Source: Candidatus Bathyarchaeota archaeon (GTDB lineage Archaea; Thermoproteota; Bathyarchaeia; Bathyarchaeales; Bathycorpusculaceae). From it: a stretch of 37,462 bases of DNA. Of this stretch, positions 5,993 through 8,516 are shown one piece after another (positions within the stretch are counted from its first letter, which is position 1; the number at the start of each line of letters is the position of its first letter). The stretch covers positions 1 through 37,462 of the forward strand of contig JAOZGY010000057.1 in NCBI GenBank assembly GCA_026015145.1. Direction: 5' to 3'. The position numbers were made by a program, and so were the translations under genes. The notes under the pieces are model-generated. The model saw nothing but the letters and a program-made list of their open reading frames with translations. It did no database searches and had not been told where the DNA came from.

Positions 5993-6050
5993 AAAAAAAG
6001 TGGGATTTTTCGGGTGACATCTCCACTCTGGCAAGGATTCAAATCCAGAC
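5993..6050 (+). repeat. tRNA-like repeat family, type-2 copy with degenerate T-loop hairpin
   Basis: The order is an A7 run, gtggg, cgggtgacatctccact (6011-6027), then tctgg-caaggattcaaat-ccaga, where ggattcaaatcc (6035-6046) parallels ggggttcgaatccc of the long copies. It directly abuts the GC-rich katG segment. Confidence 0.7.
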
Positions 6051-6111
6051 TCAAACAGATTTGGGCCGGGTTGCTTACCATATTATCGTCGTTAGCTATC
6101 TCTTGTTACGA

Positions 6112-8283
6112 TCAGGCGAGGTCGAAGCGGTCAAGGTTCATTACCTTGTTCCAAGCCGCTACGAAGTCTTGAAGGAACTTCTTCTGGGAATCCTCACATC
6201 CGTAGACTTCCGCCAAGGCCCTGAGTTGGGAGTTCGAACCGAAGATGAGGTCGACACGGGTACCGGTCCACTTGAGTTTGCCCGTTGCGTGATCACGACC
6301 CTCGAAAACGTCTTCGTCTTTTGAGGTTGCCTTCCATATCGTGCTCATGTCGAGCAGATTAACGAAGAAGTCATTGGTGAGCATCTCTGGCCGCTTGGTG
6401 AAGACGCCGTGTTGGGACTGTCCAAAGTTGGCATTCAAGACACGCATACCACCAACGAGAACCGTCATCTCAGGAGCGGTAAGTGTCAGAAGTTGGGCAC
6501 GATCAACCAGCAGTTCCTCTGCGGATACGATGTATTTGGTTTTGAGGTAGTTGCGGAACCCATCTGCCACCGGTTCAAGTACCGCGAATGACTCCACGTC
6601 GGTTTGCTCCTGTGATGCATCCGTGCGTCCTGGCATGAAGGGAACGCTTATATCGTAACCAGCATTCTTTGCAGCTTGCTCGACACCTGCACATCCACCC
6701 AGCACAATCAAGTCAGCGAGCGAAACTATCTTCCTGTCTGACTGCGCGCTGTTGAACTCCTTTTGGATTCCCTCAAAAGTCTGCAGCACAGTCTTCAGTT
6801 GAGCCGGTTGGTTGATTTCCCAATCCTTTTGCGGCGCAAGACGAATACGCGCCCCATTCGCACCGCCACGCTTATCAGAGCCACGAAACGTGGATGCCGA
6901 CGCCCAAGCGGTCAAGACCAGCTCCGAGATCAACAGACCCGAGGCAAGGATCTTACCCTTAAGCTCTGTGATATCCTGCGCGTTAATCAACTCATGATCG
7001 ACTGCGGGTACCGGGTCTTGCCAGATCAGTTCCTCTTCTGGAACCTCCGTACCAAGATAACGCGAGCGAGGACCCATGTCGCGGTGTGTCAGTTTAAACC
7101 ACGCCCGAGCAAAAGCGCCTGCGAACTCATCGGGATTCTCATGGAAGCGCCGCGAGATCGGCTCGTAGATCGGATCCATCCGCATCGCCAAATCCGCGGT
7201 GGTCATCATGGTCGGTACCCGCTTCGACGGATCATGAGCACAAGGCGCGAGATCCTTATCAGCCACATCCTTTGGCCTCCACTGCCAAGCGCCGGAGGGA
7301 CTCTTCGTCAATTCCCACTCATAGCCAAAAAGCATATCAAAATAATCTATTCCCCATCGAGTCGGGTTCGGCGTCCAGGCACCTTCCAAGCCGCTGCTGA
7401 TCGTGTCATCCCCCTTACCGCTGCCAAAGCTGCTTTTCCAACCAAGGCCTTGCTCTTCGATGCTAGCACCTTCCGGCTCAGGACCCACAAGAGTGGAATC
7501 GCCAGCACCATGACATTTGCCAAAAGTGTGCCCACCAGCGACAAGTGCAACCGTCTCTTCGTCATTCATCGCCATGCGCGCAAAAGTTTCTCGAATGTCA
7601 CGACCCGACGCAACCGGATCTGGCACGCCGTTAGGCCCTTCCGGATTCACATAGATCAAACCCATCTGCACGGCAGCAAGAGGATTCTCTAACTCCCGGT
7701 CACCAGTGTAGCGCTTGTCATCAAGCCACTCACTCTCGGTCCCCCAGTAAATGTCCTCTTCCGGCTCCCACACATCTTCGCGCCCACCACCAAAGCCAAA
7801 AGTCTTCAATCCCATTGACTCCAGAGCACAGTTACCAGCGAGGATCATCAGATCAGCCCAGGAGATTTTCTTGCCGTATTTCTGCTTGATTGGCCAAAGC
7901 AAACGGCGCGCCTTATCGAGGTTGACGTTATCCGGCCAACTGTTGATGGGTGCTAAACGTTGTGTGCCTGTGGATGCGCCCCCGCGACCGTCGCCTTTAC
8001 GGTATGTGCCTGCACTGTGCCATGCCATCCGGATAAAGAGCCCCCCGTAGTGACCATAATCAGCCGGCCACCAGTCCTGCGAGTCGGTCATCAGCGCATA
8101 AAGGTCCTTCTTCAGGGCTTTAAAGTCGAGTTTCTTGAATTCATCAGCGTAGTTAAACTCCTCCCCCATCGGATTGGACAGGGAAGAATGCTGATGCAAA
8201 ATATTCAGGTTCAACTGGTTTGGCCACCAGTCTCGGCTTGACTTGCGCTTGCGGCTATTTTTTAGTCCCTTTTTATCCTTCAA
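6112..8283 (-). CDS. katG: catalase-peroxidase KatG (723 aa)
   Basis: Full-length match to KatG hallmarks: [33 protein letters not shown] (distal Arg/Trp/His), GGHTFGK (proximal His), and the duplicated C-terminal peroxidase-like domain. G+C is far above the surroundings. Confidence 0.95.
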
Positions 8284-8398
8284 ATTAATAAAACTCCTTT
8301 CTGTAGGTTTTCTTTGAAGGGGATCAATTTAAAAGTTAAGTTTCACTGTCTCTTTCAAATTGTGTGATAAATTGTTAAAATTTTATTATATTAATCTG

Positions 8399-8516
8399 AA
8401 AAAAATGGGGGGGTTTGCGAGTGATATCTCCACTTGGTATAGGGTTCGAATCCCACCTCGCCCGCAGCTTATTTTCCAAAATAGAGCACAATTTAGAGTT
8501 ATTTTGGCAAAAAAAG
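8399..8516 (+). repeat. tRNA-like repeat family, long copy B
   Basis: The order is an A7 run, tggggggg, then the 50-nt core at 8417-8466 (47/50 identical to copies C and D), then a tail cttattttccaaaatagagcacaatttagagttattttggcaaaaaaag related to C and D apart from a 4-nt indel. Confidence 0.9.

Follow-up and report, generated by a model that had tools for sequence, protein, structure and literature searches.

Repeats with tRNA-like tails as probable markers of the transfer of an oxygen-defence gene among sediment archaea

A GC-rich katG gene between two repeats

The window, the whole stretch of 37,462 nucleotides (nt) analysed here, is contig C94 of a Bathyarchaeia metagenome-assembled genome (MAG; G000, 1.53 Mb in 139 contigs, 34.7% GC) and encodes the archaeal markers L35Ae, DUF996 and a KaiC-like domain, which, along with the names attached to close katG homologues, assign it to Bathyarchaeia. 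It carries katG, a catalase-peroxidase gene, within a series of co-oriented repeats. An initial annotation, made from the letters of the window, had described katG as a compositionally foreign and recently acquired single gene placed precisely between two copies of a repeat family. We consider it probable that katG is the sole gene of an integrase-less cassette of ~2.4 kb in a co-oriented array, that the sites of the array are junctions of elements inserting at tRNA 3′ ends, and that the cassettes are mobilised in trans or reshuffled. The features concerned are the following (ORF, open reading frame).

6112-8283, minus strand: katG, catalase-peroxidase, 723 aa, TTG start, apparently intact (ORF call, translation, PF00141).
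8284-8318, minus strand: conserved translation-start region of the cassette, with the Shine-Dalgarno (SD) sequence GAAAGGAG at 8294-8301, ~10 nt ahead of the TTG.
8319-8398, minus strand: AT-rich upstream region, presumed from its sequence to be the promoter; it aligns with the congeners G003 and G005 but not with more distant loci, a genus-only conservation.
8399-8517, plus strand: upstream repeat copy (copy B), from repeat searches and a tRNA match; A-run and core at 8399-8435, T-arm-like segment to 8453, rest of a tRNA-Arg(CCT) 3′ end to 8466, then a hairpin motif.
5993-6046, plus strand: downstream repeat copy, with A-run and 33-nt core at 5993-6027 and the T-arm-like GGATTCAAATCC at 6035-6046; part of the neighbouring HEAT cassette.
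6047-6111, plus strand: distal tail (AGACTCAAACAGATTTGGGCCGG...) and spacer, which move with katG and are kept downstream of its stop codon in G003, G019, G015, G040, L034, L275 and L276.
6047-8453, no strand: katG cassette of ~2,407 bp as delimited by the ends of homology blocks, comprising the distal half of the downstream tail, the spacer, katG, its upstream region, and the core and proximal tail of copy B.
4470-6046, no strand: HEAT-repeat cassette, with its gene at 4639-5868 on the minus strand (Pfam HEAT match).
3721-16876, plus strand: co-oriented repeat array from repeat searches, with cores near 3729, 4482, 5993, 8399, 11224 and 16755, which splits the region into one- or two-gene units.

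The two repeat copies enclose the gene as the initial annotation had stated: the downstream copy lies 65-119 nt past the katG stop codon, with a distal tail reaching ~6069, and copy B starts 116-119 nt upstream of the start codon.

Two stretches of the katG product matched PF00141 in a Pfam search (E = 1e-67), and residues 14-723 aligned to residues 17-728 of Burkholderia pseudomallei KatG (5l05; 1227 bits). The protein has the two-domain architecture of KatG, two peroxidase-fold domains in one chain of ~720-740 aa, and its distal, adduct and proximal motifs, including GGHTFGK, are identical to the aligned stretches of 5l05. The distal Arg/Trp/His, the Met-Tyr-Trp adduct and the proximal His presumably have the roles established for them in KatG enzymes.

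The composition of katG departs from that of its surroundings. In 500-nt intervals, GC content was 51-57% at 6001-8000 and ~30-40% elsewhere in the window, and the hand counts of the initial annotation (33/60 G+C at 7021-7080, against 20/60 at 10201-10260 and 12/60 at 23401-23460) proved exact. The gene as a whole has 53.8% GC. Its GC content at third codon positions (GC3), 0.598, exceeded that of every other ORF of 150 aa or more in the genome (1145 ORFs, mean 0.258, standard deviation 0.053, z = 6.4), and the first and second positions (GC1 and GC2) deviated much less from the genome's ORFs. The long antisense ORFs that had been attributed to this richness are present, e.g. at 6763-7692 on the plus strand (309 aa).

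The 5′ end of katG is AT-rich, with 10/30 G+C in its first 30 nt and 28/60 in its first 60 nt. The initial annotation had taken the first ~20 codons to be AT-rich like the host, but the AT-rich stretch is only ~10 codons long and belongs to the cassette throughout the clade. The KatG N-terminus, the SD sequence GAAAGGAG and the TTG start were kept in 9/9 Bathyarchaeia-clade loci aligned, indicating that they are parts of the cassette and no local host-derived fusion.

Cassette ends and the repeat family

Positions 4470-6046 of the window were 99.4% identical over 1,578 bp to positions 2830-4407 of a JGI contig (L267), and the identity ended between 6046 and 6047, right after GGATTCAAATCC. The HEAT gene is flanked by katG and L35Ae in the window, and by an ABC transporter gene and a gene for an 858-aa PQQ-repeat protein in L267, where further cores follow both the HEAT gene and the PQQ gene. 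The occurrence of a 99.4% identical HEAT cassette elsewhere shows that the accessory region of the window is a cassette array with independently moving units. Because the identity ends where it does, the proximal half of the downstream repeat copy belongs to the HEAT cassette and the distal half to the katG cassette; this distal half (AGACTCAAAC...) co-occurs with katG in 8/11 clade loci.

The katG block of the window was 78-89% identical at the DNA level to those of L034, G019, G015 and G040, which lie in other genomic contexts, and the shared segment begins ~30 nt upstream of the start codon and extends through the whole downstream core. When the window was compared with congener G003, homology extended through the AT-rich upstream region and the core of copy B and stopped at ~8448, inside GGGTTCGAATCC (8442-8453). 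Homology blocks thus end at the T-loop-like motif of the repeats, which argues that the position of katG between them is not a matter of chance. Judged from these alignments, the repeats delimit a mobile unit that holds katG alone.

Among five congeners, no match to the HEAT protein was found, and the 547-aa protein of the window had counterparts of only 28-33% identity, on other contigs. Synteny is not conserved in these genomes, so that presence and absence of katG cannot be compared there at the site that katG occupies in the window. L034 (JGI sample 3300027893) and the ENA contig L266 (sample ERZ27275847) provide one filled and one empty site. L034 equals L266 plus 2,493 bp that contain only katG, with flanks 99.1% and 99.65% identical. 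The two flanking alignments overlap by 104 nt, and L034 holds this 104-nt segment twice, 2,493 bp apart. The direct repeat consists of a core, a 32-nt spacer and the last 31 nt of tRNA-Pro(GGG); between the two copies the tRNA part (31 nt) is 100% identical and the rest 92%. The insertion size is consistent with that of the window cassette. In L034, katG sits between a flavodoxin gene and tRNA-Pro(GGG), and its product is 93% identical to KatG of the window. The lineage belongs to the same order and another family (its Drg GTPase shares 69% identity with the G040 protein and 55% with the one from G000).

In L275, the katG cassette also lies beside tRNA-Pro(GGG), with different neighbours. A comparable unit without katG was found in contig C11 of G019 (L015, 13650-15658): its 1.9 kb carry only a DUF1846 gene and run from a full tRNA-Asn to a core with a tRNA-Asn 3′ tail, with repeat identity running ~30 nt beyond the tRNA end. 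Inserts with a full tRNA gene on one side and a direct repeat of the gene's 3′ end on the other were therefore observed at tRNA-Pro (L034), tRNA-Asn (G019) and tRNA-Ala (contig C110 of G000). The window itself has only 3′ tails, of tRNA-Arg(CCT).

Each repeat copy consists of an A-run, a 33-nt core (...GCGGGWGAYATCTCCAC; consensus GGGrrrGTTnnGCGGGWGAYATCTCCAC) and a variable tail that usually opens with the T-arm-like GGRTTCRAATCC. Genome-wide, ~36 copies were found (34 at E ≤ 0.2 on 17 contigs, nhmmer), mostly in clusters of one orientation with 1-5 kb spacing and confined to intergenic gaps; most cores differ by ~20%. A 17-nt core pattern with at most one mismatch occurred 22 times in G000, and the reversed control pattern once in all 61 genomes searched. 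The pattern was present in 34 of 61 related genomes and in more than 120 sediment-metagenome contigs among the matches listed. In IMG/VR it gave 25 matches, nearly all of them chance occurrences within unrelated genes, and only L124 and L131 were element-like. Co-oriented arrays of cores were also seen in congeners, with at least 8 copies spread across 30 kb in G003 (C2, 402-432 kb) and 6 copies across 8 kb in G005 (C43, 1.7-9.3 kb).

The tails of several copies are the 3′ ends of different tRNAs.

Three long window copies: tail of tRNA-Arg(CCT), with the full gene in congeners G003 and G004.
C110, copy at 272: tail of tRNA-Ala(TGC), 19/20 positions; the tRNA lies on the same contig 4.3 kb away in the same orientation, with a PF00589 integrase gene between.
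C61, copies at 18345 and 19107: tail of tRNA-Pro(GGG), 24/24 and 21/23; the tRNA lies on another contig.
C32, copy at 5278: tail of tRNA-Asn, 19/19; the tRNA lies on another contig.

The 25-nt tail of copy B matched the 3′ end of full tRNA-Arg(CCT) at 25/25 positions in congener G004 and 24/25 in congener G003. ARAGORN and Rfam detected no tRNA or RNA family in the window, and single-sequence folds of five repeat copies were no stabler than those of shuffled sequences (z from -1.9 to +0.4). A hairpin motif, GCTTATTT(n4)AAATAAGC, stands behind several different tRNA genes and tRNA-derived tails in G000 and in metagenome contigs (C123, 4757-4897; window, 8467-8517, 11292-11345 and 16823-16876); it is probably the lineage-typical terminator of tRNA genes.

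The initial annotation had asked whether other compositionally deviant genes lie near the repeats, and they do. ORFs within 300 nt of a repeat had a median GC3 of 0.312, compared with 0.249 for the rest (Mann-Whitney p = 6e-9; p = 2e-8 when katG was left out), p values that are generous, given the dependence among related ORFs. In G000, its own tRNA-Pro(GGG), the tRNA that serves as insertion point of the katG cassette in L034 and L275, is followed immediately downstream by four ORFs (C123, 687-4709) that rank among the highest in the genome by GC3 (0.40-0.46). Contig C37 has six tRNA genes (Arg, Gly, Phe, Val, Leu, Leu) within 1 kb of one strand (1676-2700), which is unusual for an archaeal genome, and this contig may be a contaminant or viral sequence in the bin.

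Distribution and origin of katG

Of the 40 relatives searched, 5 were found to have katG: an intact gene in G019, G015 and G040, a pseudogene in four pieces with stops in congener G003, and in congener G005 a gene cut by the contig end. The search found none in congener G002, which is 96% complete. The neighbours of katG differ in every genome compared and are never syntenic. In G003 they are genes for a rubrerythrin and a histidine phosphatase. Further oxidative-stress genes thus follow katG in other genomes, namely a catalase-related fragment and rubrerythrin in L035 (6565-7554) and the rubrerythrin of G003 (L014, 9126-9629), which suggests that such genes gather in the same islands.

The cassette DNA of the window was 88.8% identical to that of L034, and katG DNA was 84-89% identical between lineages whose housekeeping DNA cannot be aligned. 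For comparison, housekeeping DNA of the congeners aligned to G000 only in patches, at 68-76% identity, and that of G019 hardly aligned. KatG proteins are conserved, with 72-88% identity even to bacterial KatGs.

In phylogenetic analyses (a 202-sequence FastTree tree and a 60-sequence IQ-TREE quick tree with an arbitrary root), the window katG fell into a clade with Bathyarchaeia-labelled sequences and with G019 and G040 (95% SH-aLRT), and G015 in a different subclade. The broader archaea-dominated group contains a 731-aa 'Halobacteriota' clade and a few bacterial-labelled sequences (Methylomirabilis, Nitrospira SG8_3, Bacillota). Its nearest neighbour was a clade dominated by Thermodesulfobacteriota (81% support, IQ-TREE). 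The phylogeny proposed in the initial annotation as a route to the donor therefore placed the gene among Bathyarchaeia next to Thermodesulfobacteriota-dominated sequences, but at 81% support it did not pin down a bacterial donor.

The GC3 of katG differed widely between hosts.

Desulfobacterota-type relatives: 0.77-0.80
L034: 0.74
L036: 0.67
G015: 0.64
Window: 0.60
G019: 0.59
G040: 0.41

GC1 (~0.59-0.63) and GC2 (~0.43-0.45) were constant across hosts, and GC3 followed host GC only loosely. Variation of GC3 from 0.41 to 0.80 with GC1 and GC2 fixed means that a gene-specific compositional constraint does not explain the anomaly, which bears out the foreign composition claimed for katG; GC3 is free to drift, and the gene is at differing stages of adjustment in different hosts. 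From these sequence comparisons, the donor and the direction of transfer can be proposed: the immediate source was most likely another, more GC-rich Bathyarchaeia lineage rather than a bacterium. The acquisition was lateral and involved a single gene, as had been suggested, given its presence in 5/40 relatives, the lack of synteny and the 88.8% identity to L034. It was not recent at the level of the strain, since two congeners (G003 and G005) have the same cassette and the same upstream region, one of them with katG as a pseudogene.

Lateral transfer of katG between bacteria and archaea has reportedly been described before. As here, the earlier reports concern a patchy distribution and a bacterial-type gene in anaerobic archaea; they drew on trees or annotation, whereas the vehicle and the insertion site are visible in the present case. 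katG (AA2) is also known from Bathy-6 MAGs (PMC11697101), and one catalase-peroxidase, along with genomic islands, is recorded in a genome paper on Bathyarchaeia.

Two genes of haem synthesis, ALAD (hemB, PF00490) and porphobilinogen deaminase (hemC, PF01379), were not found in the 91%-complete G000 MAG; both were present in 11/14 control genomes. The host may be unable to make the haem that KatG needs, although absence from a MAG is no proof. A lack of its own haem would fit katG being dispensable and decaying in congener G003.

Proposed mechanism, alternatives and meaning

We propose that a cassette end is a composite site made up of the A-run, the 33-nt core and a mimic of the tRNA T-arm, and that exchange would take place at or beside the T-loop-like GGRTTCRAATCC. 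Such sites would be the element-side junctions of a family inserting into tRNA 3′ ends (Pro, Arg, Ala, Asn and others). A tyrosine integrase encoded outside the cassettes would presumably mobilise them in trans, or recombination at the conserved sites would reshuffle them. In this scheme katG would be a bacterial-type, GC-rich gene that circulates among Bathyarchaeia on its cassette and has been partly adjusted to an AT-rich host. The cassette would bring its own ribosome-binding site, TTG start and upstream region, and a T-run at its 5′ end, which is the A-run as read on the gene strand, could insulate it from read-through transcription.

The katG unit encodes no integrase of its own, only katG, and the G019 unit has only its DUF1846 gene. 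Candidates for an enzyme acting in trans would be a Zn-ribbon integrase family, which adjoins cores on C127 and C101 of G000 and in 4/80 metagenome loci and has an intact member on L168 (2055-3254), and the integrase of C110. The latter lies beside tRNA-Ala, has an uninterrupted PF00589 frame of 256 codons and is read towards the full tRNA-Ala, with the core at the opposite end of the element. Two integrase genes of the SSV type (PF16795) are present on C56 (reverse complement, 2143-3363) and C126 (6255-7148), both without a core. The C56 gene has a stretch resembling a tRNA 5′ half (GGGGCGGGTAGCTCAGCACGGATAGAGC) inside its frame, and the C126 gene opens with a T-arm-like hairpin; both look like genuine 'suicidal' arrangements, with attP in the gene, unrelated to the core family.

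Several observations weigh against this proposal. In the window, no tyrosine recombinase match (PF00589 or PF16795) was obtained on the 37-kb contig, the tail of the downstream copy has no recognisable tRNA 3′ end, and there is no full tRNA; a full tRNA-Arg(CCT) is missing from the whole G000 assembly, which leaves the anchor of the array unseen here. The core-associated integrase family (C127, 1603-2667, and C101) has in-frame stops in G000, and no recombinase is tied to the sites. The downstream site is missing in 3/11 clade loci (L035, L036 and L274). The pair of filled and empty sites was observed outside the window species, in a different family of the order, and the 104-bp repeat of L034 is long enough for ordinary homologous recombination, so that exchange there need not have been site-specific.

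The last point leads to the alternative that survives best, which we nevertheless regard as unlikely: genuine cassettes would be reshuffled through ordinary homologous recombination, with cores and tRNA-like tails as the pairing segments, and the repeats would be old integration scars on which no dedicated recombinase acts. The 92-100% identity of the 104-bp direct repeat would serve such pairing, as would cores that are conserved enough genome-wide, and the lack of an integrase in the window and the in-frame stops in the C101 and C127 integrases would be expected. In contrast, two independent comparisons break at the same T-loop-like motif (between 6046 and 6047, and at ~8448-8453), and the 100% identity of the tRNA part in L034, compared with 92% for the rest, is what an att identity segment would give. 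Most cores, at ~20% divergence, are also short for such recombination.

Less probable still is that the repeats are stubs of SSV-type ('suicidal') integrase genes, with the core as the first codons and each copy as an int(N) scar. The core of copy B does contain in-frame starts (TTG at 8415 and GTG at 8421) and its frame is open for 92 codons, many copies can be read as LRV(I/T)SPLG.GF(E/K)S, and G000 has PF16795 integrases, of which that of C56 carries the tRNA-like segment in frame. Yet frames reach at most 92 codons in the 36 copies of G000 and at most 111 in 81 metagenome copies, so that none extends to a catalytic domain, and in this frame most core substitutions change the amino acid (V/E, I/T). 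On C126 and C56 the PF16795 genes have no core, the window contig has neither a PF16795 or PF00589 match nor an int(C), and C110 shows the classical arrangement, its integrase directed to the full tRNA-Ala and its core at the opposite end. Two related candidates were discarded: the 92-aa frame through copy B as a gene remnant, which found only short frames in 60 relatives and nothing in Pfam, and the resemblance of the C56 integrase peptide (LRETS...) to the core frame, which has no match at the DNA level.

A purely regulatory or small-RNA role of the repeats (a terminator/promoter module or a tRNA-like small RNA), with their position around katG unrelated to mobility, is very unlikely. On the gene strand the copies close with 6-7 consecutive T, plausibly an archaeal terminator; T-runs likewise close several subfamilies when these are read on the plus strand, and copies occur only in intergenic gaps. 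The repeats may have a regulatory side function. Against a role of this kind alone, the Rfam and ARAGORN searches of the window were negative and folds were no stabler than shuffles, the tails are the 3′ ends of at least four different tRNAs and are paired with full tRNA genes, and both the homology blocks and the insertion/deletion end at repeats.

Vertical inheritance of katG with a gene-specific constraint on GC, or an assembly or binning artefact, is hardly tenable: orthologues in relatives are also GC-rich compared to their own flanks, protein identity is high even to bacterial KatGs and the window katG lies within a Bathyarchaeia-containing clade, but vertical descent is already contradicted by the GC3 range at fixed GC1 and GC2, the patchy distribution without synteny, the filled and empty sites and a cross-family similarity of cassette DNA far above that of housekeeping DNA, and a chimeric assembly by the recurrence of the block of katG and flanks in G003 and G005 and of the adjoining HEAT cassette in an independent contig.

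The reading of katG as cargo of an integrase-less cassette can be set beside known systems. Bacterial cis-mobilizable elements (CIMEs) accrete in tandem at one tRNA site. With tRNA-targeting integrative elements, the present units share a full tRNA and a 3′-end direct repeat as bounds (L034, G019 and C110), an empty site, tandem units in one orientation and tyrosine integrases on some repeat-bearing contigs. They differ in having 1-2 genes (2-5 kb) without an integrase, in a common 33-nt core fused to the tails of different tRNAs, and in that the same katG cassette is found at tRNA-Pro (L034 and L275) and beside a tRNA-Arg tail in the window. The tycheposons, or tRNA-proximal islands, of Prochlorococcus reportedly have cargo modules separated by partial tRNA repeats, and integrase-less satellite modules with niche-adaptive genes are said to occur in them; they belong to another domain of life, use other recombinases and are not known to have a conserved core adjoining the tRNA fragment.

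Among archaea, integrated elements can be integrase-less and in tandem ('Archaeal tyrosine recombinases', PMC8371274). Elements with SSV-type integrases (SSV1, pTN3, pT26-2; PMC7253208, PMC8371274) resemble the present case in being archaeal, in targeting tRNA genes and in leaving tRNA-fragment scars, and PF16795 occurs in G000; unlike them, the core-bearing sites showed no attP within an ORF and no int(N)/int(C) halves.

Integrons, including archaeal ones (Ghaly et al., 2022; PMC9668308), share single-ORF cassettes, a site split between neighbouring cassettes, co-orientation, compositionally atypical cargo and a cassette order that varies between related genomes. Such reordering was seen here: the HEAT cassette stands in another context, and the katG neighbours differ in G003, G019, L034 and L275. 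In contrast to integrons, no IntI or attI lies beside the array on the 37-kb contig, although the array ends could lie off the contig. The sites consist of a conserved core, GGRTTCRAATCC and tRNA-derived tails, and are not attC imperfect palindromes with R''/L''-L'/R' boxes. A ribosome-binding site and an upstream region come with the cassette itself, and the arrays are tied to tRNA genes. Membership of the integrons was ruled out by the lack of IntI and by sites that are not attC-like, and integrons are kept as a functional analogy. By analogy, the arrangement works like accreted tRNA-targeted elements and like integron arrays, and it falls outside both the integrons and the self-sufficient integrative elements.

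A wider proposal is possible, and we put it forward tentatively: an integron-like exchange system may operate in Bathyarchaeia and perhaps in many archaea of sediments, in which integrase-less cassettes of 1-2 genes, with sites made of a core and a T-arm mimic, would be inserted by a tyrosine recombinase acting in trans at tRNA 3′ ends and at one another's sites, katG being one cargo.

Lateral transfer of katG has long been deduced from trees, and what is new is a visible vehicle, namely a cassette of 2.4 kb with one gene and defined ends, for which filled and empty sites and a preferred target tRNA can be seen. It is likely that the repeats mark how this oxygen-defence gene moves between sediment archaea. 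The site formed by the core and the T-arm is a concrete, testable recombination substrate. If a dedicated recombinase acts on such sites, archaea would have in this system a counterpart of integrons based on tRNA mimicry, and it would help to explain the gain and loss of oxidative-stress genes in uncultured anaerobic archaea. If the integron-like reading is true, tolerance to H2O2 or oxygen would be a swappable trait in nominally strict anaerobes, including some that possibly do not make haem.

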